64,000 nt of DNA from an uncultured Deferribacteres bacterium (GCA_964014485.1 CAXHAT010000011.1:1-64000); one strand, 5' to 3'; positions 12,391 to 38,695 are shown, counted from the first letter of the stretch. Made by a program: numbers and translations. The notes: generated from the letters alone by a model not told the origin.

Positions 12391-13794
12391 TTATTTTGCG
12401 AAGATTTTGATTTGAGAGTTTTGCCAGTTTGATACAGCCTTATCACAATTACCAGCTAAACTGCATTCACAAAAAGCCATCTTAAAAATTAAAGGTTTGT
12501 TATTTGGGTTTGATCTATTCAGATTCAGAATCTTCGATATTTGGGTGATTCGTTGGTTTGTAAGAGATTCTTGTTTATTATCCCGGTCTCTGTTCATATC
12601 CGTGTAAATTATAAAAAGCTTCTTTCCTGATTTTGAAATCTTGTTTATTCGTCGACGATCGTAGTGACCTGGATTTTCGCTATTATACCCAAAAAAAACA
12701 ACCTGCCGCTCTCCCAAGTCTTTGCTTGTTTCGATAACGTATTTTAAAAGTTCAATGGTCACGGGTCGATTTTTTGCTGAGCTTAACGAGCTTCTTATAG
12801 CCTTTGCTAAACAAGCTGGCTCTGGAAAATCAGGCAAATACAATGAAATAAATGTTCGCAGTTGATCGAGAGAGATCTTCTTACCTATGGTAGCATTATC
12901 TATTATTTGCCTTTCAAGCATCAGAATACAATATTCAGCCAAGTGTAAAGCTTGCTGACGAGCATCATCAGGGAGATGTATTTCTTTTAGTAAGTTATTC
13001 TTTGTTATCGTATGCTTTTCCTGCAAATCCTTAGTTAAAAATGCACTTAGATCGTTTACTGAAATGTATTTCGCCTGACTGACACTGCGCAGGTTATCAA
13101 TAAATGCAGGTCTCTTGTCTTTGATCAGTTTCATTGTTCTTTCGATACAAAGATGCCAGGCGTATGTCGTGACGGCGTTTATGTAAACATCATTCAGCGT
13201 TTTATGCCGATCATTTTGCTTATTATGCAAAGCCAAAGCTGTTCTAAATGATGAATCTGCATATTTTAAATTTTGGCGGAATATTTTAGCGTACAGTGGA
13301 TCGACTGGCAAACGGGATGCCCATAAATAGTACAAATCTCCAAGCTTTCTGTAAATTGTCGCCTTATCAAGCCCGGACGATTCATCAATGCTAGGTGAAA
13401 GGGCTTTTTTATAATATTCTTCAGCTCGTTTGTAAAAGCCGCTTCGTCTTAACGCGTCGGCGATGACGACATATTGGGCGACGGTAATCTCTCCAAAAAC
13501 TCCGTACAAATTATCTTCGATGATTTCAAGGGATTCCAAAAGATCAAGCTTCATCATTAGCCCGGAATCTTCGTCACTCTGATTTTGAGCAAGAGCTTTT
13601 ACGGAGCCGACTAATATTTGACGCTGCAAAGAAGTATATTGCACGAGAGTCAGGAAAGCGATGACTGCGCCTATGAATAGAGCTGCGAGAGCGGAGGGTT
13701 CACGGTTCTGTTCTTTTTTATGAAATTGGTACAATAGACGACAAACTAAAACGAATAGGACAAGCAGAGCCAAGACAAACAAATACTTAAACAT
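12391..13794 (-). CDS. AT-rich hypothetical membrane protein: 2 N-terminal TM helices, TPR-like region, possible degenerate OmpA-like C-terminus
   Basis: 467-aa ORF; AEEYYKKAL and ATIYRKLGDLY are TPR-like; C-terminal VFFGYNS..YTD..N..SLTNQRI..NSQIKI. Confidence 0.6.
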   Translation of the reverse strand: MFKYLFVLALLVLFVLVCRLLYQFHKKEQNREPSALAALFIGAVIAFLTLVQYTSLQRQILVGSVKALAQNQSDEDSGLMMKLDLLESLEIIEDNLYGVFGEITVAQYVVIADALRRSGFYKRAEEYYKKALSPSIDESSGLDKATIYRKLGDLYYLWASRLPVDPLYAKIFRQNLKYADSSFRTALALHNKQNDRHKTLNDVYINAVTTYAWHLCIERTMKLIKDKRPAFIDNLRSVSQAKYISVNDLSAFLTKDLQEKHTITKNNLLKEIHLPDDARQQALHLAEYCILMLERQIIDNATIGKKISLDQLRTFISLYLPDFPEPACLAKAIRSSLSSAKNRPVTIELLKYVIETSKDLGERQVVFFGYNSENPGHYDRRRINKISKSGKKLFIIYTDMNRDRDNKQESLTNQRITQISKILNLNRSNPNNKPLIFKMAFCECSLAGNCDKAVSNWQNSQIKIFAK

Positions 13795-27974: not shown

Positions 27975-28775
27975 TCAAGTATAAATGGCTTCGGTTATAT
28001 GAACTAGAGAAGGCTTGCATTCGCCTATTCCGACGGCGTCATAGGTAACGCTGTTACCAACCGGAGATCGATCCGTCTTCGCCTGTACTCTGAACCATTG
28101 TCCACATGGAATATCGATCGTCCAATGTCCCCCCACGGGCAAGACGATTCCGGCATATTCAGTAAAAGCCTGCCAGTTAAAAGAAATGAAAAGATATCTG
28201 GGGCCATCACTTCGATTGAATAGAGTGAATCGAGTTCCTTTGCCGGCCGGAGTATACCTTGGACGTTTTGGAATCTCGGGATAAATTTCCACAAGTGGTT
28301 TCCAATTAGCGGGCCGCAAAGCGTAGAATTGATGAATCGGCGAAGTATAGCCCCAACATCTCAGCGATTCAGCAGGTATTTCTTCATCAGCTAGAGTGAC
28401 CCAATCCCTGCTTGCGCGATGCCACCAGCGCGTCACAGGCATCGTGCCACTCTCTCTTCTTCTTGAAGCGTAGAATTGAAAAGTTTTCTGCTCATACCCC
28501 CATGCACGCATCTTATAATCCGGGATTTCTCCTCCTGCCAATGAAATCCAATCCTTATCTCGGGGGTGAAACCAACGATGGACGGGATTTGGACGCCAAA
28601 GTTCTCCAGGAGTGAGCCATGCATCAAACTGATGGATTTTCTTGGAGTAACCGAGGCGAAAAAGTTGTTCGTCGGGCAACTCATTTTCTGCCAGAGTCCA
28701 CCAATCTCCTTTTATGGGATTCCACCAACGATAAACTTTTACTCTTTTTTGAGCATTAACGCTATTAAAATTCAT
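27975..28775 (-). CDS. Protein with three ~50-aa Trp-rich repeats (DUF5648/beta-trefoil-like) and a C-terminal beta domain
   Basis: Repeat V.RW(W/F).P...DW.(T/S)LA..E.P...(L/M)..(L/W)GY.....QF.A occurs three times; AAGGAG RBS. Confidence 0.7.
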   Translation of the reverse strand: MNFNSVNAQKRVKVYRWWNPIKGDWWTLAENELPDEQLFRLGYSKKIHQFDAWLTPGELWRPNPVHRWFHPRDKDWISLAGGEIPDYKMRAWGYEQKTFQFYASRRRESGTMPVTRWWHRASRDWVTLADEEIPAESLRCWGYTSPIHQFYALRPANWKPLVEIYPEIPKRPRYTPAGKGTRFTLFNRSDGPRYLFISFNWQAFTEYAGIVLPVGGHWTIDIPCGQWFRVQAKTDRSPVGNSVTYDAVGIGECKPSLVHITEAIYT

Positions 28776-28851
28776 TTTATACTCCTTATAAATGCAAGAC
28801 GATAACTTTTAAAGAGTGAGATTCGGTAATTGAATATTATTTTCCGCTATG

Positions 28852-29130
28852 CCGTCTCATTGAAATCCCCCGGGGCCGCTCTTAAAAAACTTGCGAAAAG
28901 CTTCAAATTTCGCCAAGTTGAGACGGTCTTGATTTAGGAGGGCATTCCCGAATCAAGCATTATGAGGGCCCGTTTGTCTGACTGATGGGCTTTTGTTAAC
29001 CATGCTCTATCTGTTGCCACAGGTAGAGCATCTTTTTATTGCCAAAGCCAGGTTGCAACAAAAAGAGCGTTACTAAGGGCCGCGCATTAAAATCACCTCC
29101 TTTAAATCAGTGAATGACATGAAAACGCTC
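28852..29130. ncRNA. Candidate structured RNA / leader with abutting hairpins
   Basis: Stems 28852-59/28919-26 (inner 28889-98/28908-18), 28928-57, 28968-90, 29002-31, 29031-66, 29065-71/29124-30; no long ORF. Confidence 0.45.
29073..29087 (-). other. Minigene MRGP-TAG-TAA with a 12-nt Shine-Dalgarno
   Basis: AAAGGAGGTGAT (29103-29092)-TTTA-ATG CGC GGC CCT TAG TAA. Confidence 0.4.
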
Positions 29131-29136
29131 GTTTGA

Positions 29137-29373
29137 CTAAGTGAAGAGCAGTTCCACGACAATTTTGATGACTGCCGTACCGCTGAGTAATAGAACTGCG
29201 TGCATCAATTTGTTCTGTACCGCCTGTTTCGCCTCGAGCCTCGCCAGTTTACTCTTCAAGCCTTCAGCGCCGTTGCCAAAGACTGAATCCTGCAGAACCT
29301 TGGATTCAGTCTTCGCTTCATTTAGAAGGCGTTCAAGAACCGCTACTCTGGCTTCTATTGGGAGTCTGCTCAT
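29137..29373 (-). CDS. 78-aa coiled-coil protein with C-terminal TM (phage-type small membrane protein, holin/XhlA-like layout)
   Basis: GGAGA RBS before ATG 29373; EARVAVLE, VFGNGAEGLKSKLARLE, hydrophobic C-terminal segment. Confidence 0.65.
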   Translation of the reverse strand: MSRLPIEARVAVLERLLNEAKTESKVLQDSVFGNGAEGLKSKLARLEAKQAVQNKLMHAVLLLSGTAVIKIVVELLFT

Positions 29374-29579
29374 TTTTTCTGTCTCCAATCAAAGTTGCTT
29401 GCTGTGCAAGCACCAATGTGATTTCGTTTTTTTACTAAAGCGCGATACGCGCTTTAATAATAGAACCCGGCTATCGCAAAATCTGGGTGATTTTTTTCGG
29501 ATTGTAGCAAACCAAGTTTTCTTCGGTCCGCGAGTCAGTGATAAACGGCGGGTCGATATAGTTTAAAGCGAAGGTTCTT

Positions 29580-30218
29580 ATGATAACTAACGAAGCGCAG
29601 AAGGAGCTTATCAAATCAATTCAACGGGGTGACCAGGCAGCCGAAAACAAGCTAATAAGGTACTACCTGCGCGTTCTAAATAGATTTTATCCCGACTATC
29701 CGGACTTGGTGCAAGATGTCCTATTCTATTTTATCCGGAGAGTTAGATCAGGCGAGTTCAAGATTGGGGAGCATTATCCATGGGGATACGTACGGAAAGC
29801 CCTTTTATCGAAGATAGCGACTTACCATAAACGCTCAAAAAAAAGCCACGTGGAAATAGATAAGGTTGGAGTAGAAACAACACTTGCATCTAGCGTAGAA
29901 GCGCCCGAAACTCCCTTGCATAAACTGTTGCGCAAGGAGCACGAACGCCTAACGCAGCGTGTAGATCAAGAGCTTTCAGACGCCATCGAGCGCTTAAAAG
30001 ATCCACATAAACAGATAATGCGCTGGACGTTATATGATGGGAAAAAGCCTTTTGAGATTCGGGAAAAGTTGGATTTGCCTAAAGATGAGGAGCAGACAGT
30101 CTACGAACTCAAAAGACGCGCTCTAAATCTTCTCGAAGATGATGTTGTGCTTCAACGTTTATACTCAGAAATTACGAAACACGAAATTGACTTAAATGAG
30201 TTGATCCATGAAAGCTAA
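29580..30218 (+). CDS. ECF-type (sigma70 group 4) sigma factor
   Basis: Region 2: LIKSIQRGDQAAENKLIRYY..DLVQDV..YVRK; region 4: LSDAIERLKDPHKQIM..YDGK..EI.EKL..TVYELKRRALNLL. Confidence 0.82.
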   Translation: MITNEAQKELIKSIQRGDQAAENKLIRYYLRVLNRFYPDYPDLVQDVLFYFIRRVRSGEFKIGEHYPWGYVRKALLSKIATYHKRSKKSHVEIDKVGVETTLASSVEAPETPLHKLLRKEHERLTQRVDQELSDAIERLKDPHKQIMRWTLYDGKKPFEIREKLDLPKDEEQTVYELKRRALNLLEDDVVLQRLYSEITKHEIDLNELIHES

Positions 30219-30906
30219 ATCTAAGGCCGATAAGGAGTTCGATGCCACCATCGACAGATATTTGGACGGACTTCTTTCTTCTGAAGAAGCTGAAAATTTT
30301 GAACTTCTATGTATGCAAGAAGAAGCTCTTTTTCAGCGCTTCGAGCAAAGAAAAAGATTTCGACATGATGTGGCTCGGGTCATCAAAGAAAAGGGCGATG
30401 AGATTTTCCCCAAGCAAACCCCGGAAGAGGCGGAACGAGATCGAGAAATCGTCCGAGCAGCTATTCTCGGGCAAGAACATACACCCAATGTTGAAGCTAA
30501 AGACCGGGATTTAGAGTGGAAAGATCGTCTGGCAGTGATGTTCAAGCAAATTTCCGCCGATTTCAACCGCGCGTTTCCGAATCCCGCCTCGCTTGCGCTG
30601 GCCAAAAGCGAAGGCGGCGCTTTTGAAGTCAAAACAATTCAAAGCGACGACAAGAGTTTGAGTTTGCATGTCACGTCGGCGGTATTTGCTGATGATGCGC
30701 TCAAACTTTTGTTTAGCATAAAGAAAGGCGATCCAACGCCATTCACCGGCAGTCTTTGCATTTACAAGACTGCCAATGGAAAACGGGATCTCATCGAAAA
30801 AGTCCGTTTGGAAGACGACCCTGATTTTTTATCCGCTGGTATTGCAAAAGAAATTATCATCAAAAAAGATGAACTCGGCGAGTTTGAGTTTGAATTGTGC
30901 GATTGA
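30208..30906 (+). CDS. Putative soluble anti-sigma factor
   Basis: N-terminal IDRYLDGLLSSEEAENFE..L helical anti-sigma-type motif; 11-nt overlap with the sigma gene; no TM; C-terminal beta-rich domain. Confidence 0.7.
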   Translation: MKAKSKADKEFDATIDRYLDGLLSSEEAENFELLCMQEEALFQRFEQRKRFRHDVARVIKEKGDEIFPKQTPEEAERDREIVRAAILGQEHTPNVEAKDRDLEWKDRLAVMFKQISADFNRAFPNPASLALAKSEGGAFEVKTIQSDDKSLSLHVTSAVFADDALKLLFSIKKGDPTPFTGSLCIYKTANGKRDLIEKVRLEDDPDFLSAGIAKEIIIKKDELGEFEFELCD

Positions 30907-30912
30907 ACCGTT

Positions 30913-33900
30913 TTGACTGAGAATAAATTTAATACCCTTTCCGACTTTTTCTTTCCTGCCGCCAAGGCTCCTGCAACCGCTGCTCTCAAATGGCATGAGG
31001 TAGAAGTGTATCTATACGCCCGCTTGCAGACCTCGCCGCCGCCTGAAGCGCTCAAAGCCTTCTTGCTTGATCTTGAAGAGAATTGGCGACCTTTTATTGA
31101 AAGCCGCACTGAGAAGCAAGAGCAATTGACTATCGCTCAACGGTTGACATGGTGTGCTCTTCACAGCCGAGAATTCAAAACGCGTGCGGCATTCGACGTT
31201 TCGAGCGACAAACCGGATTTTATCTGCAAGGATGAGGAAGATAGTTGGCGCTTCATTCTAGCCTTCCGCTCGGGGGAAAAGCTCCAAATACCATTTGCGT
31301 GCGTGGTCGATACCGACGGCGCGATCTGCCATTTTGAGTTGAAATTGTGTCGGGGCGGTACGGGAAACGTGTATCATCATCCAGACAATCCGTTCAGAAT
31401 AACATCCTGCGAAAAAGACAACCTTATTGAAGATAATTTTATTGACGCCGTTGAGACGGCTTGGCGCGCGGCAAGACGACATGTTGATAACTGCAACGTC
31501 GACGGATGTTGGCGCATTATCGATCCGCCTGCCAAGCCTTTGGGCGGCCCATCCGCCGGAGGCGCGGCGGCTCTTGGCTGGCTTCACTTATTACGAGGAA
31601 CCAAGCCCGATACGCGTGTGATCGTCATCGCGGCGATTGATACAGGCGGCAAGTTGCAAAAAGTTGGAGGCGTGGAGGCTAAAACGCGTGCGGTGGCTGC
31701 GGCCAATGCGCGGAACAAAGACTCCGTTCATTCTTTTTTTGACAAAATTATTGTTGCGGCCCCGGAAAACCGGGACGCTGCTGTGAAGGATGAGGCGATT
31801 GTTCCAGAAATCGTGGGTTCACTCGCCGACTGCGCCGATGTCCGCTCACAGGCGGCGACGGACTTGATCCACTACTTGAACAAGTTGATCGAAGACTTGG
31901 ACGCAGTTCAAGGACGGAACCCAGCAAGGAGGAGTCGAGATATTGCAATCGATACTTCAGTCTACACACGCAAAATTGAAGCTAAAGATGAAACGTTCGA
32001 CCCAAACGATCCTAGAAGAAGGCAACATCGTTCCGTTCTTGAAGAGATGGAGTACCAAAAATATGAACTGCCAATTGAGCGTGAGCGCCGACTGAAAGAA
32101 CCGTGGTCCGATGTGTTCGAGCGCGCTCGAGAACCGCTTGTACTCAAAGGGGCCCCCGGTTCCGGCAAGACCTTCCTTTCGCGGCAGTCGGTTTTGAAAA
32201 TTGCGCTACAAGCTCGAGGCGCTTTGGCTGCTGGCGCCGGGCTCAAAGATGTCGGTTTACTGCCGATCTGGATTACAGCAAACGAACTGATACAATCTGC
32301 ATCCGTTCCTGATTGTATTCTTGAATCTATACGATGCAATAAAGTCAAGGGCAAATTGTCTCAAGCGTTTTTGCAGTGGTTCGAAGAATCCAGAATTTGC
32401 ATCGTCATAGATGCGCTGGATGAGATTTCGGAAACCAAAAGCGTCTTGAGGGAAAAGCTGCGGGCACTCAATGCATGGATTGGTAAGGGACGTTTGATGA
32501 TGACATGCCGAACGATGGATTGGCTTAAATTCCAAGATAATCTTGGTTCGATGATGCTTACCGAGGTCGAGCTGGCGACGCTTGACGATGACGAAAAACA
32601 GCAGCTTGTCCGTAAGTTTTTCGCCAGAGACTCAGAAAAGTGCGAACGCATGCTCAACCTGCTCGATGATAACAGGTCACTCGATTATGCCTGCGAGTCG
32701 CCGCTTTTGCTGAACTTCGCATGCTCGCTATGCGACGACCCTGACACGAAAATCGACAAGAACACAACTAGCGTCGGGCTTTACATTAAGATAATGGATC
32801 ACATTTTTTCAGGAAAGTGGCGGAATGTTGAGCCTTTCTGGGGAGATGAAGACGAGGACATCAGAGATTGGCAGAACAAGTTGCACTGCATCGCTTGGCC
32901 AATGTTTTCTAACACTCAGGAAGCAAAATACAATGAAAACGATAATGACGCAAAGTGGCGCGAAAAAAATCGATTTTCAAATATCGAGTGGAAGGCCGCT
33001 TGTAAACAAGCTGGAATCAACGATAGGAACAATCGCTTCTTCAAAGAACTGAAAAAGGTCGGCGTCTTGGTTTCCTCTGGCCGACGAGATAACCAGGACA
33101 AAGACCCATGTACGAGTTTTTTGCACCGTACGCTGTTCGAGTATAGCGCGGCTCGCGGCTTGGCGCTGGATAAAAACAATTATCGCACATGGATTGCTGA
33201 AAAGGCGAAAAAACGACCAGGAGAGCCGGGTGGCGTATTTTGGTTCGCCCCTGAATGGTGGGAAATGTTGACGTTTCTATCTGGCATAGAAAATATCGAC
33301 GTACAGCTTTTGCTCGATGCTGTTGATCAAAATTGCGACGATGTTTTCCACTCAATGCTTTACCTTAAGGCAAAATTCGTAGGCGCAGCCGACGGCACAA
33401 ACCATCTGAGTGGAAGTACCTTACCAATAATCTGTAGCGTAATTCAAATGGTGGTCGTTCAAGATAGTACCATCTCGACTTTACATAGATCGGTTATCCG
33501 TTCTATAATCAACCAGTTATCACTCACCCACCAGGTGAAAGAACAGCTTGGTATAACGCTATTAGACAGTCTTAACCCGCAAAGCGGTCCTGTTTTAAAT
33601 GACTTCATTTGTAAAATGTTGGGAGACATCAGAAGCGAACGGACTGTCAATCCTCTCATCCAAATCATGAGGCTTTATTCAAAGTCAATCGCCAAACTAA
33701 AAAGAGGCGAGCATGCTTATTTGGCTGATTTTGCATCTCAAGCGCTAGTCAGAATTAGAAGCGAAGGCGCAGTTTATGGTATCCTACAGTCCCTGAAAGG
33801 GACAGAACATTGGAGTTTGCAAATTTATGCTGCTTCGGCACTAGGTAGGATGGTAGGTTTCATAAAGTATGCTGCGGGAAAGGACAACATCAAGAAAGTT

Positions 33901-34920
33901 CCAGACCTTCTTAAAACTATGAGGGAAACAGAATATGCAGAGTTAGCTCAAATCGTTGCCGAAAAGCTTGGCGATATGAGAAGCGCACGCGCTGTGTCAG
34001 TGTGTTTACAGGCCCTACGACAAAATGAAGATTTGTCTTTACGTTCTGCCGTCTACTGGGCGTTAGATTGGATTTCTTGGGCGCTGACTGCTTCCAAAAG
34101 TGAACACCCCGATCCTAAAGCCTTTCGGCGACCAGATGAGCCCCAAATCGTCACAGAGGTCCCGGATAACATCAGAATCGAACAAACCGTTTTCGAACTT
34201 CTTAAGACTATCCGGGAAGCAAAAAATTGGGATTTGCGCGAACGCGCCGTTGAAGCCCTTATCGAATCTTCAAGGGAAGCTGTAAGTGATGAAGTGTTCG
34301 ATGAGATTGCCGGAGCTCTGGGGAGTATTAAAAGTGAGCACACTATTAAAGCTCTTGTCAACGCCTTGCGAGATACGCACAAAGATGTGCGCTGGGTTGC
34401 TGCCGAGGCTCTGGGAATTATTAAAAGCGAACGCACAGTTGATGCCCTTATCACTGCTTTACGGGATATTGACGAAGATGTGCGTTCGTCCGCCGCCTCT
34501 GCGCTGGGCAAGATTAATACCGAACATGCAATTAATGCCCTTGTCACAGCCTTATGGGATCCAGATGAGGATATACGTTTGACTGCTGTTAGAGGTCTGG
34601 GCGATGCCAATTGCGAACGCGCCGTGGATGCCCTTGTCGAAGTCTTAGTGGATGAAAATAGGGACATCCGTGCTAATGCCGCCTCATCACTAGGCAGACT
34701 TAAGAGCGAACGTACGGTTGATGCCCTCATAACTACCTTGTCGGATATTGATGTAGGCGTGCGTTTGTCCTCCGTTGATGCTCTGGGCAAGATCAAAAGC
34801 AAACGCACTATTGAGGCTCTTGTCGAACTCTTCCGAGATGAAGACCATGGCGTGAGAACGCATGCTGCCGATGCGCTATGGAATATTTCATGGGAACATA
34901 AAGTCCCAATCTTTAAATAA
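30913..34920 (+). CDS. Lon (S16) protease domain - NACHT NTPase - HEAT-repeat fusion protein (NLR-like STAND)
   Basis: GGPSAGG (S214) and VGGVEAK (K257); Walker A GAPGSGKT (413-420), Walker B IVIDALDE (497-504), TCR, SPLLL, FLHRTLFEYSAA; 31-aa PBS-lyase HEAT repeats at the C-terminus; TTG start 6 nt after the upstream stop. Confidence 0.88.
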   Translation: MTENKFNTLSDFFFPAAKAPATAALKWHEVEVYLYARLQTSPPPEALKAFLLDLEENWRPFIESRTEKQEQLTIAQRLTWCALHSREFKTRAAFDVSSDKPDFICKDEEDSWRFILAFRSGEKLQIPFACVVDTDGAICHFELKLCRGGTGNVYHHPDNPFRITSCEKDNLIEDNFIDAVETAWRAARRHVDNCNVDGCWRIIDPPAKPLGGPSAGGAAALGWLHLLRGTKPDTRVIVIAAIDTGGKLQKVGGVEAKTRAVAAANARNKDSVHSFFDKIIVAAPENRDAAVKDEAIVPEIVGSLADCADVRSQAATDLIHYLNKLIEDLDAVQGRNPARRSRDIAIDTSVYTRKIEAKDETFDPNDPRRRQHRSVLEEMEYQKYELPIERERRLKEPWSDVFERAREPLVLKGAPGSGKTFLSRQSVLKIALQARGALAAGAGLKDVGLLPIWITANELIQSASVPDCILESIRCNKVKGKLSQAFLQWFEESRICIVIDALDEISETKSVLREKLRALNAWIGKGRLMMTCRTMDWLKFQDNLGSMMLTEVELATLDDDEKQQLVRKFFARDSEKCERMLNLLDDNRSLDYACESPLLLNFACSLCDDPDTKIDKNTTSVGLYIKIMDHIFSGKWRNVEPFWGDEDEDIRDWQNKLHCIAWPMFSNTQEAKYNENDNDAKWREKNRFSNIEWKAACKQAGINDRNNRFFKELKKVGVLVSSGRRDNQDKDPCTSFLHRTLFEYSAARGLALDKNNYRTWIAEKAKKRPGEPGGVFWFAPEWWEMLTFLSGIENIDVQLLLDAVDQNCDDVFHSMLYLKAKFVGAADGTNHLSGSTLPIICSVIQMVVVQDSTISTLHRSVIRSIINQLSLTHQVKEQLGITLLDSLNPQSGPVLNDFICKMLGDIRSERTVNPLIQIMRLYSKSIAKLKRGEHAYLADFASQALVRIRSEGAVYGILQSLKGTEHWSLQIYAASALGRMVGFIKYAAGKDNIKKVPDLLKTMRETEYAELAQIVAEKLGDMRSARAVSVCLQALRQNEDLSLRSAVYWALDWISWALTASKSEHPDPKAFRRPDEPQIVTEVPDNIRIEQTVFELLKTIREAKNWDLRERAVEALIESSREAVSDEVFDEIAGALGSIKSEHTIKALVNALRDTHKDVRWVAAEALGIIKSERTVDALITALRDIDEDVRSSAASALGKINTEHAINALVTALWDPDEDIRLTAVRGLGDANCERAVDALVEVLVDENRDIRANAASSLGRLKSERTVDALITTLSDIDVGVRLSSVDALGKIKSKRTIEALVELFRDEDHGVRTHAADALWNISWEHKVPIFK

Positions 34921-35077
34921 AGTGCTAAAAAACTCGATGTCTTTCACAAACATAACAATGAAGTCAGTTGGCTATTGATGGTGAGAGTGAATGGTTTTCA
35001 CCCCTATTTTACTATTGATAAAATCTGTTATCAGTACCAAACTAACACCCTTTTGATCATAATTGCAGTGGGGAATT

Positions 35078-37291
<2,214 letters not shown>

Positions 37292-37579: not shown

Positions 37580-38695
37580 TTAATTTTGCACCAGTTCAAA
37601 CGCGCCAAGCGGCTTGGTAACGCCGTTTAAAACAACCTCGACCTGGTGCGTTCCGGGATAATGTTTTCGCGTCGTCAATTGAGCCAGTGAAATCGACTTT
37701 TGAATCTTGACGCTTTCTCCCTGTGCGAGTTCAGCGGTCTTCAGCTTAAAGACCTTGGGACTGGTTTTGCCGTTGGCTTTGATAAAATGCACGCGACAGT
37801 CGATGAGCAGGCGGCGTTTTTTTGCGTCATCATTTTTCACTTCAAAACTCAGGACAACCGATTGCCCGATGGCAGGTTTTGCAGGCGAAAGCGAAACCTC
37901 ATTGAAAGAAATATTATCGGCGCCCTCATAGCCCAAAATGGCGAGCGCTCCGGGATCGGCGCGCTTAATCGCCGAACGCAGCGCGTGCCGGACAAGCCAT
38001 TCTCGATTTTCTGAAGCGTCTTTCATCCACCCGCGCGCTGTCTCCACAAGAATCTTGGGATGGTCTTTGCCGATGTCGTTCAAATTGTTCGCCACCGAGC
38101 GGCGCACGTAAAGCTCAGGATCATCCTTCAACAATTCGAGCAATTCCAGCACAGGGGCCGGGTCTTTTTGAAAACGGCGCAGACGCGGCGCCCAGGGCAA
38201 AAGCGGGCGCGTCCCTTCGGAGACGAGGCGGCGAACGTGGAGGTTGGGATCGTGCGTCCATTCTCGGAGACGCTCCAACGTCTTCTCCGGATAGCGATCC
38301 AGAAATGCGCGAATGCTGAATTCCGCGGTGAATCTTTGCGTCAACTCGTACTGCGCCCGCATCGACGCTTCGAAATGTTCCAGCCCGAATTCGGCGACAA
38401 AAAACACGTGCGGCATGTAGAGAAACGGCGCCATTCCATTGCCTTCAAGGCTTTTGATTCTGGGGCCAAGCGAAGCGAGCAATATTTCAATCGCGGCTTC
38501 GTAATCTTCCGGCAAGTATTTGCGCAGCGTCCTGGCTATTTTCCAGCCGCGCGGGGTGAGCTCGAGTTCATCGTAGCCGTCAAGTGCGTCGCGGACAAAG
38601 CCGTCAGCATCGAAGTCCGGCATGACCGATGAAATCATGCCCGCAATCTTTTTTGGAATCTCAGGGCCGAAATAATTCTTTAGCGGTTCCGCCAT
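37580..38695 (-). CDS. DNA alkylation repair protein (AlkC-like HEAT-repeat glycosylase with C-terminal Ig-like domain)
   Basis: LTQRFTAEFSIR.F, HVRRLVSEGTRP.LPW, YVRRSVANNLNDIGKDHP, KVFKL, TTRKHYPG.H. Confidence 0.9.
   Translation of the reverse strand: MAEPLKNYFGPEIPKKIAGMISSVMPDFDADGFVRDALDGYDELELTPRGWKIARTLRKYLPEDYEAAIEILLASLGPRIKSLEGNGMAPFLYMPHVFFVAEFGLEHFEASMRAQYELTQRFTAEFSIRAFLDRYPEKTLERLREWTHDPNLHVRRLVSEGTRPLLPWAPRLRRFQKDPAPVLELLELLKDDPELYVRRSVANNLNDIGKDHPKILVETARGWMKDASENREWLVRHALRSAIKRADPGALAILGYEGADNISFNEVSLSPAKPAIGQSVVLSFEVKNDDAKKRRLLIDCRVHFIKANGKTSPKVFKLKTAELAQGESVKIQKSISLAQLTTRKHYPGTHQVEVVLNGVTKPLGAFELVQN

Follow-up and report, generated by a model that had tools for sequence, protein, structure and literature searches.

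Proteolysis that connects sensing to transcription has CRISPR-linked precedents in CalpL and Csx29. CalpL is built of three domains, N-terminal, Lon and SAVED. CalpT is bound by the first of these, and a filament driven by cyclic tetra-adenylate (cA4) lets the Lon site of an adjacent subunit cut it, the third component, CalpS, being a sigma factor like those of the extracytoplasmic function (ECF) type (bioRxiv 10.1101/2024.05.08.593097, in the available part of the preprint). The system of Cas7-11, the TPR-CHAT protein Csx29, Csx30 and a sigma factor likewise links a sensor-activated protease to an anti-sigma factor and an ECF sigma factor (PMC10028731, in the available part of the article). 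Here, we describe a three-gene operon in 64,000 nucleotides of DNA from an uncultured Deferribacteres bacterium (GCA_964014485.1 CAXHAT010000011.1:1-64000; this whole stretch is referred to as the window). The last gene of the operon (gene 3) encodes a Lon-type protease domain followed by a NACHT NTPase and a HEAT-repeat array, and the first (gene 1) encodes a divergent sigma factor. Gene 3 had previously been read, in a prediction made from the sequence alone, as a NACHT protein with a Lon S16 protease domain as its effector. What is added here is that gene 3 stands in one operon with a sigma-factor gene and an anti-sigma-like gene, which suggests a candidate switch built on a sensor-activated Lon-type protease.

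Characterised bacterial proteins related to nucleotide-binding, leucine-rich repeat (NLR) receptors mostly use nucleases, NADases, pore formers and caspase- or trypsin-type peptidases, which stop the infected cell. Like bacterial NACHT (NLR-related) and Avs proteins, the gene 3 product has an effector at its N-terminus, a NACHT NTPase in the middle and repeats at its C-terminus. It differs from them in its predicted output, which would be the release of a sigma factor rather than killing, and in the type of its effector. Caspase, trypsin, transglutaminase-like and SMT4-like peptidases are those described as effectors in bacterial NACHT proteins, and a Lon-type effector does not appear in that list in the available part of the source (bioRxiv 10.1101/2022.07.19.500537). 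Full-text searches of the literature returned no description of a Lon-type effector on a NACHT protein, or of a cassette in which a signal transduction ATPase with numerous domains (STAND) is combined with a Lon domain and a sigma factor. The word Lon is also absent from the main texts of a 2026 STAND survey preprint and of an eLife 2020 article (PMC7159879), the supplements of which could hold such a class.

The open reading frame (ORF) of gene 3 extends, as had been claimed, from 30913 to 34920; it lies on the plus strand and encodes 1335 amino acids (aa) from a TTG start. The start codon is uncertain, given that a 1304-aa form in a public protein collection begins at the GTG at 31006. The longer form is more likely, to judge from sequence alignment, because relatives of the protein align from query residue 8-20 or so onward, upstream of 31006. 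Recomputing the positions recovered every motif of the original prediction where it had been placed, all on the plus strand: the upstream Lon-like elements IPFACVVDTDGAICHFEL (aa 126-143) and FIDAVETAWRAA (aa 176-187), GGPSAGG (aa 211-217, 31543-31563), KVGGVEAK (aa 250-257), the Walker A motif GAPGSGKT (aa 413-420, 32149-32172), the Walker B motif IVIDALDE (aa 497-504, 32401-32424), TCR (aa 531-533), SPLLL (aa 596-600) and FLHRTLFEYSAA (aa 736-747), which corresponds to the FLH..EY.AA pattern. The proposed nucleophile S214 (codon 31552..31554) and the proposed general base K257 (codon 31681..31683) are 43 residues apart, again as claimed; this equals the spacing in E. coli Lon, the catalytic pair of which we take to be S679/K722.

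The Lon-type (S16-like) proteolytic domain was placed at aa 122-328 (31276..31896, plus strand) by fold match and family profile. The best match of the gene 3 protein in a sequence search of the PDB is Lon protease 2 (LonBA) of B. subtilis (E 0.048); the alignment, ungapped over 64 residues, sets S214 on the serine of GPSAG and K257 on the lysine of GGVxPK. The LonB model of NCBIfam matches the protein at E 0.043. An exhaustive HMMER search with aa 1-390 returned 208 relatives at E ≤1e-3, 61 of them at E ≤1e-10, and a word-indexed homologue search with aa 1-400 returned the query itself only. A hidden Markov model (HMM) alignment of 152 rows was built from the query and the best 150 of the 208 relatives. 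The column of S214, which is aligned to the GPSAG serine of Lon, holds serine in 150 of the 152 rows and gaps in two; that of K257, aligned to the lysine of the Lon catalytic motif, holds lysine in 151 and a gap in one. These two are also the sole invariant columns in a MAFFT alignment of 70 sequences, the members of which are about 22-34% identical to the query. The motifs of the family include G.G....HHP.D, DGRWRL, G.SA.GAAA.GW, V.G(V/I)..K..A(I/V) and RFDTIVVA. A profile of the 70-sequence alignment found Lon proteases as its best matches in the PDB (8dvh at E 0.006, A. fulgidus Lon at E 0.05). Five of its eight PDB matches at E ≤1 are Lon proteases, with the catalytic serine and lysine aligned. 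Individually, six of the 70 members match the Pfam family Lon_C at E ≤0.5 (best E 2.7e-4), and no other Pfam family is matched by two or more of them.

Structure prediction agrees with these sequence relationships. The AlphaFold2 model of the Lon module, computed with the 70-sequence alignment, has a mean predicted local distance difference test (pLDDT) score of 80.1 and a predicted template modelling (TM) score of 0.75, and contains an α/β domain at residues 123-303. In a Foldseek search with this model, the matches shown are all Lon entries, at E values of about 1e-8 to 1e-7; one of them, 1rr9_F (E 1.0e-7), has a TM-score of 0.74 by target and a root-mean-square deviation (rmsd) of 2.6 Å. 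Alignment of residues 122-328 of the model with the catalytic domain of E. coli Lon (1rr9_A) by VIA covered 171 residues, with a Z-score of 18.4 and an rmsd of 2.6 Å. The predicted structure thus confirms a Lon proteolytic-domain fold in aa 122-328, and the alignments confirm that the putative Ser-Lys dyad occupies the homologous Lon positions and is invariant in the family. The original prediction had made its claim depend on this fold and on the conservation of S214 and K257 in homologues, and both were found. Its reading of gene 3 as a NACHT protein with a Lon-type protease domain is therefore supported, and the product is very probably a catalytically competent Lon-type effector.

The remainder of the protein is that of a STAND protein. 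The NACHT domain (PF05729) occupies aa 408-572 (32134..32628, plus strand) and covers positions 2-166 of the 167-position profile at 32.0 bits (E 1.3e-7), above the cut-off of 26.7, so that by Pfam's own cut-off this is a NACHT STAND protein. The C-terminal HEAT-repeat array, the presumed sensor, spans approximately aa 930-1335 (33700..34917, plus strand), with HEAT_2 matched in six stretches (E 4.7e-68) and HEAT_PBS at E 3.5e-25 in Pfam. In front of the protease, a helical domain extends over aa 1-118 (30913..31266, plus strand), as delimited by the AlphaFold2 model and the family consensus. Its helices are modelled at residues 9-118, with pLDDT of about 90 from residue 20 in the module model and 85 when the domain is modelled alone. 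The 70-sequence consensus indicates that the helical and proteolytic domains have been conserved jointly throughout the family. The original prediction had suggested that this N-terminal region might dock the substrate.

Gene 3 has in common with the canonical Lon proteases (LonA, LonB and LonC; MEROPS S16) the proteolytic fold and a Ser-Lys dyad set in GxSAG and GG(V/I)xxK motifs. It differs from them in having no Lon-type AAA+ unfoldase before the protease, where a helical domain of 118 residues is found instead, and in having the NACHT domain as its sole NTPase, C-terminal to the protease. This order, the reverse of that in canonical Lon, had been noted in the original prediction and is borne out by the domain limits. 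A score below the Lon_C cut-off and the family-specific motifs HHPxD, DGRWRL and RFDTIVVA set it apart as well. The domain order recurs in the family. Among the 29 relatives of at least 699 aa within the best 150, a NACHT domain is found in 15, and two more show AAA_16 or NB-ARC only. Their C-terminal parts are varied: HEAT repeats in 14, TPR in five, a beta-propeller in one and an FGE-sulfatase domain in one, with NACHT alone recognised in six and nothing in two; none of the 29 reaches E 1e-4 with Lon_C. Most of the other relatives are 300-400 aa long. A split form of the window's protein is seen in one related locus (L016:1974-7052, minus strand), in which a 285-aa Lon module is directly followed by a separate 1398-aa NACHT-HEAT protein (NACHT E 2.4e-14).

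Gene 3 is the last of three tightly spaced genes on the same strand (29580-30218, 30208-30906 and 30913-34920). Gene 1 (29580..30218, plus strand; 212 aa) encodes a divergent sigma factor of the sigma-70/ECF type. It matches the NCBIfam sigma70-ECF model TIGR02937 at E 7.9e-8 over aa 24-183 (profile positions 12-159 of 165), with 32.1 bits against a cut-off of 42.9, and 11 of the 12 other NCBIfam models listed for it are sigma-factor models. Its best sequence matches in the PDB are sigma-E (1or7, E 0.011) and other ECF sigma factors (E 0.011-0.04). The ESM Atlas gives a feature score of 0.97 to sigma-70 clusters, with structure matches to clusters of ECF sigma factors. Pfam returned no match to gene 1 even at E 10, and a word-indexed homologue search returned the protein itself only.

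Gene 2 (30208..30906, plus strand) overlaps gene 1 by 11 nucleotides and ends 6 nucleotides before the TTG of gene 3. It encodes an orphan protein of 232 aa in the position expected of an anti-sigma factor, and gene order makes it the candidate substrate of the protease; a word-indexed homologue search retrieved only the protein itself. In a MAFFT alignment its N-terminus falls opposite the stretch of related-locus partner proteins that carries LxDEEFxAY...H..C..C. Complex prediction for the gene 2 protein and aa 1-335 of gene 3, the latter with the 70-sequence alignment, gave scores of 0.17 and 0.15 against a mark of 0.32 and is counted neither for nor against an interaction. The region ahead of the operon (29389..29579, plus strand), as read from the sequence, presumably contains the promoter. 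A hairpin resembling a terminator lies 3' of the operon (34980..35002, plus strand) and is a consensus match of a kind not in excess of shuffles; a promoter and terminator scan of 28500-35400 gave a site count no higher than in shuffled sequences.

The association of the Lon module with such genes was followed in related loci. Of the searches for such loci, one returned at least three and another a single genome locus with six short metagenome loci. Gene order was read around the module in 17 places, and the upstream genes could be read in 12 of these, including the window. The layout of the window is found again in a metagenome locus (L025): a 220-aa sigma factor (Sigma70_r4_2, 38.1 bits against 25.7), a 241-aa protein with zf-HC2, an anti-sigma zinc finger (24.3 bits against 22.2, E 3.4e-5), and an open-ended ORF of at least 552 aa in which the Lon module is succeeded by a P-loop NTPase with GGPGSGKS, LLLDALDE and TCR motifs. 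The order is again sigma factor, zf-HC2 protein and Lon-NACHT fusion, the last with both Walker motifs, and the two upstream proteins reach the Pfam thresholds. An Anaerolineae metagenome-assembled genome (MAG; L002) encodes a 247-aa sigma factor (Sigma70 r2, r3 and r4, E to 1.3e-16), a 215-aa protein (zf-HC2 E 0.02) and a Lon module of 369 aa. In a Deltaproteobacteria MAG (L023), a 1033-aa Tubulin_2 protein with Sigma70_r4_2 at its end (28.0 bits against 25.7) precedes a 257-aa protein (zf-HC2 E 3e-4), a 335-aa Lon module and a 499-aa protein. The first of these (L023:975-4076, plus strand) is an unusual fusion of Tubulin_2 (E 2.4e-8) to a C-terminal Sigma70_r4_2 (E 1.8e-6) with a weak r2.

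Other loci carry the module in further contexts. The split form described above (L016, genome G309) has proteins of 255 and 229 aa ahead of its Lon module. Two loci encode Lon-STAND fusions: one of 1498 aa (L017, genome G177) behind proteins of 229 aa (TIGR02937 E 8e-4), 212 aa and 166 plus 168 aa, and one of 1527 aa (L019, genome G345) behind proteins of 267, 219 and 354 aa, the first of which is 72% identical to the 229-aa protein of L017 and itself has no match. A second locus of genome G345 (L021) encodes a 297-aa protein (ECF-type sigma models at E 5e-4 to 0.014), a 226-aa protein, a Lon module of 474 aa (L021:5074-6498) and, after it, an 872-aa TPR-CHAT caspase-like protease (L021:2434-5052, minus strand; CHAT E 8.8e-41), an arrangement that hints at a cascade of two proteases behind a sigma-like and anti-sigma-like pair. 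A TPR-CHAT protease placed right after the Lon module recalls the Cas7-11/Csx29 system, which differs in joining its caspase-like CHAT protease to an RNA-guided sensor (PMC10028731, available part). A Planctomycetota MAG (L003) has a 317-aa protein (zf-HC2 E 0.003) before a 504-aa Lon module. In L004, the results for which rest on the unpublished genome G169, the order is a 172-aa protein (TIGR02937 E 0.018), a 508-aa protein, a 534-aa protein and a 401-aa Lon module. The 534-aa protein (L004:2124-3728, plus strand), directly upstream of the module, joins zf-HC2 (E 4e-4) to a HEAT array (HEAT_2 E 2e-41), so that a repeat sensor may here sit on the substrate instead of the protease. Nothing recognisable was found upstream in L018 (genome G273) and L020 (genome G242); in the former, a longer ORF on the other strand overlaps the Lon-like one, no genes precede the module on its own strand, and the locus was counted as lacking a sigma or anti-sigma neighbour.

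Taken over the 12 loci, a same-strand upstream gene matches a sigma-factor model at the curated cut-off in three (L002, L023 and L025) and at E ≤1e-3 in three more (the window, L017 and L021), the match in L004 being at E 0.018. No sigma factor came up when PDB sequences were searched with a profile built from the first genes' products in L017, L019 and L004, or with the 255-aa L016 protein. Immediately before the Lon module, 10 of the 12 loci have a gene or genes that match zf-HC2 or that phmmer connects to a protein matching it: the match is direct in L025, L023, L004, L003, L002 and, at E 0.11, the window, and the connection is through phmmer in L016, L021, L019 and L017, with neither found in L018 and L020. 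These upstream proteins are mutually related, that of L002 matching those of L016 (E 3.1e-7), L003 (1.7e-5) and L021 (2.1e-4). An H-x3-C-x2-C motif is visible in four of five aligned upstream proteins of related loci, and the best PDB match of their profile is 3hug_B (E 0.036), which we take for an anti-sigma factor bound to its sigma factor. Sigma-factor and zf-HC2-like genes recur just upstream of the module whether it is free-standing, fused to a STAND protein or next to a CHAT protease, and they do so in MAGs labelled Anaerolineae, Planctomycetota, Deltaproteobacteria and Methylococcales.

Because the sigma factor and partner genes lie directly upstream of gene 3, the analogy with CalpL becomes a concrete hypothesis, in which the logic of CalpL, CalpT and CalpS is kept and a NACHT-HEAT part replaces SAVED. 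The HEAT array of gene 3 would bind a trigger ligand, and binding would cause NTP-dependent oligomerisation of the NACHT domain. Oligomerisation would bring the helical N-terminal domains and Lon modules together and activate the protease, which would cut the 232-aa gene 2 product. An alanine-rich linker near aa 127-135 of that product is a guess at the cut site, by analogy with the LAAA site of CalpT (bioRxiv 10.1101/2024.05.08.593097, available part). The gene 2 product would hold the gene 1 sigma factor inactive until cleaved; once released, the sigma factor would guide RNA polymerase to a response regulon. On balance, we lean towards this full mechanism of sigma-factor release.

In the proposed mechanism, the operon resembles CalpLTS, as far as the available part of that preprint describes it, in three respects: a Lon-type Ser-Lys protease without a Lon ATPase follows an N-terminal domain and is fused to an oligomerising sensor; an ECF-like sigma factor and a small partner are encoded beside the protease; and cleavage in trans after assembly would, by analogy, release a transcriptional response (bioRxiv 10.1101/2024.05.08.593097). 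The two also differ. The sensor of the window's protein is NACHT plus HEAT, which take up its C-terminal 930 residues, with SAVED absent among the 23 Pfam families listed for it at E ≤1, and a protein or other ligand together with NTP would take the place of cA4. The partner has no MazF-like or DUF2080 domain and is of the zf-HC2 type in related loci. No cas genes are present among the 21 window ORFs scanned. The residues of the dyad are 43 apart in gene 3, as against 41 in CalpL (S152/K193, from the available part of the preprint). Gene 3 is neither a canonical Lon nor a member of CalpLTS.

A number of results count against the mechanism or some part of it. The Lon_C score (PF05362) stays below the Pfam cut-off of 21.1 bits, both for the whole gene 3 protein (12.5 bits, E 0.11, aa 207-262) and for aa 1-390 (14.5 bits). 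CalpL is not among the sequence or structural matches listed for the Lon module, a listing of 50 entries that leaves room for similarity; a specifically CalpL-like Lon domain therefore finds no support, and independent recruitment of the Lon domain is possible. Fold matches of the N-terminal helical domain are at background level (best Foldseek E 2.4); against 48,161 chains, VIA gave a best Z-score of 7.8, to a designed repeat protein, and CalpL was not among the matches. For gene 2, the sole Pfam match at E ≤10 is zf-HC2 (PF13490) at E 0.11 over aa 10-32, with 13 bits against a cut-off of 22.2; neither the MazF-like nor the DUF2080 domain of CalpT was matched at that threshold. Its H-x3-C-x2-C motif is incomplete in the MAFFT alignment, the histidine and second cysteine being replaced. 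Comparison of gene 2 with two alignments of related-locus partners by hhalign was not significant (probability <1%), NCBIfam returned nothing for it, and its ESM Atlas score is below 0.9. No sigma factor was found upstream in four of the 12 loci (L003, L016, L018 and L020).

The same holds for the surroundings of the operon. The flanking genes are housekeeping or metabolic by Pfam: they encode a formamidase, a DUF5648 protein, a PQQ dehydrogenase with cytochrome c, a DNA-alkylation-repair/HEAT protein and a beta-lactamase-fold protein, with UvrA, HisRS, oxidoreductases and an exonuclease among further neighbours. The Pfam scan was confined to 21 of the larger window ORFs, lying from 8.7 to 53.9 kb; it found no Cas families, and none of the ORFs scanned looked like a mobile-element gene. 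In PADLOC (PADLOC-DB 2023), gene 3 is matched by HEAT-ARM_XIII (E 3.4e-19, aa 936-1271), by HEAT_CxxC_PDDEXK through its repeats and by mad8 (E 0.0037), and by no Avs or bNACHT model. An immune role of the operon is an assumption, because the neighbours are housekeeping genes and PADLOC offers no defence-system model beyond generic HEAT. A reading of the window as a defence island was considered and is unsupported, its neighbours being of the housekeeping kind.

These results give some room to a different role for the Lon-type domain, that of a broad-specificity effector of killing or arrest. In such an abortive infection the domain would degrade many cellular or phage proteins once the NACHT-HEAT sensor had detected an invader, and the sigma factor and gene 2, instead of being its substrates, would merely govern operon expression. 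Peptidases at the N-terminus form an established effector class among bacterial NACHT proteins (bioRxiv 10.1101/2022.07.19.500537, available part), and both the failure of hhalign to establish gene 2 as an anti-sigma factor and the four loci in which a sigma factor went undetected fit this reading. However, the recurrence of sigma and zf-HC2-like genes across forms of the module and across differently labelled MAGs is what a dedicated pairing of substrate and enzyme predicts, and the conserved helical N-terminal domain suggests specific docking, by analogy with CalpL (bioRxiv 10.1101/2024.05.08.593097, available part). We regard a killing effector as unlikely, though the strongest of the alternatives.

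Somewhat less likely still is that cleavage proceeds as proposed and serves ordinary signal transduction, in response to an endogenous or environmental cue, and not immunity. The STAND regulator MalT offers a comparison for such a role, and the housekeeping neighbours, the want of a PADLOC defence model beyond those for HEAT repeats and the lack of mobile-element genes among the ORFs scanned all agree with it. Two features are instead typical of conflict systems, by resemblance only: the patchy spread of the module and the swappable sensors (HEAT, TPR, beta-propeller and FGE-sulfatase). In the window's own phylum, the module was found in one of 167 genomes, which is that of the window itself. 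It occurs in at least seven of 401 genomes of the phylum to which the L003 genome belongs (record labelled Planctomycetota) and in at least two of 401 of that of the L002 genome (record labelled Anaerolineae), both counts being lower bounds from a search that scored five candidates per genome. The module is rare and patchy in its distribution.

Finally, a structural or oligomerisation domain in place of a protease, as in ComM and BrxL, which are among the structural matches of the Lon module (Z 16.3 and 15.2), would suit the sub-threshold Lon_C score but is very improbable, given that the serine and lysine alone are invariant in about 150 relatives at about 30% pairwise identity, a pattern expected of an active site under selection, and that this pair aligns with the catalytic residues of true Lon proteases.

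Other features of the window were noted in passing. An 83-aa ORF (29137-29388, minus strand), transcribed away from the operon, has a coiled-coil-like N-terminal part and a hydrophobic tail; the 141-aa plus-strand ORF that overlaps it looks non-coding and is of low complexity. The 266-aa protein encoded at 27975-28775 (minus strand) contains internal W-rich repeat units and matches DUF5648 at E 1.9e-6. A second HEAT-containing protein (37580-38695, minus strand; DNA_alkylation E 2.1e-6, weak HEAT_2) lies 2.7 kb downstream and probably has no link to the operon. A 467-aa ORF (12391-13794, minus strand) has no Pfam match at E 1e-5 and lies in the segment of the window with the lowest guanine-cytosine content (0.396, against approximately 0.50), which may be foreign DNA. 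Three sequencing runs are listed for the locus, all of DNA and from one marine-metagenome study.

If the mechanism of sigma-factor release is correct, the Lon-type head and the sigma/anti-sigma-like pair would tie NLR-like sensing to gene regulation through regulated proteolysis. The family amounts to a natural series in which different sensors are joined to a single output module, so that the question lends itself directly to testing, and the module could serve as a programmable switch from protease to transcription. More tentatively, the helical domain and Lon module together may form a portable device for cleaving anti-sigma factors, plugged onto many sensors: NACHT-HEAT, TPR, beta-propeller and FGE-sulfatase STAND proteins, separate NACHT proteins and perhaps CHAT proteases. 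Were this so, the operon in the window would be a STAND equivalent of CalpLTS with an origin outside CRISPR, and would encode an NLR-like receptor with a dedicated transcription programme as its output, rather than cell death.

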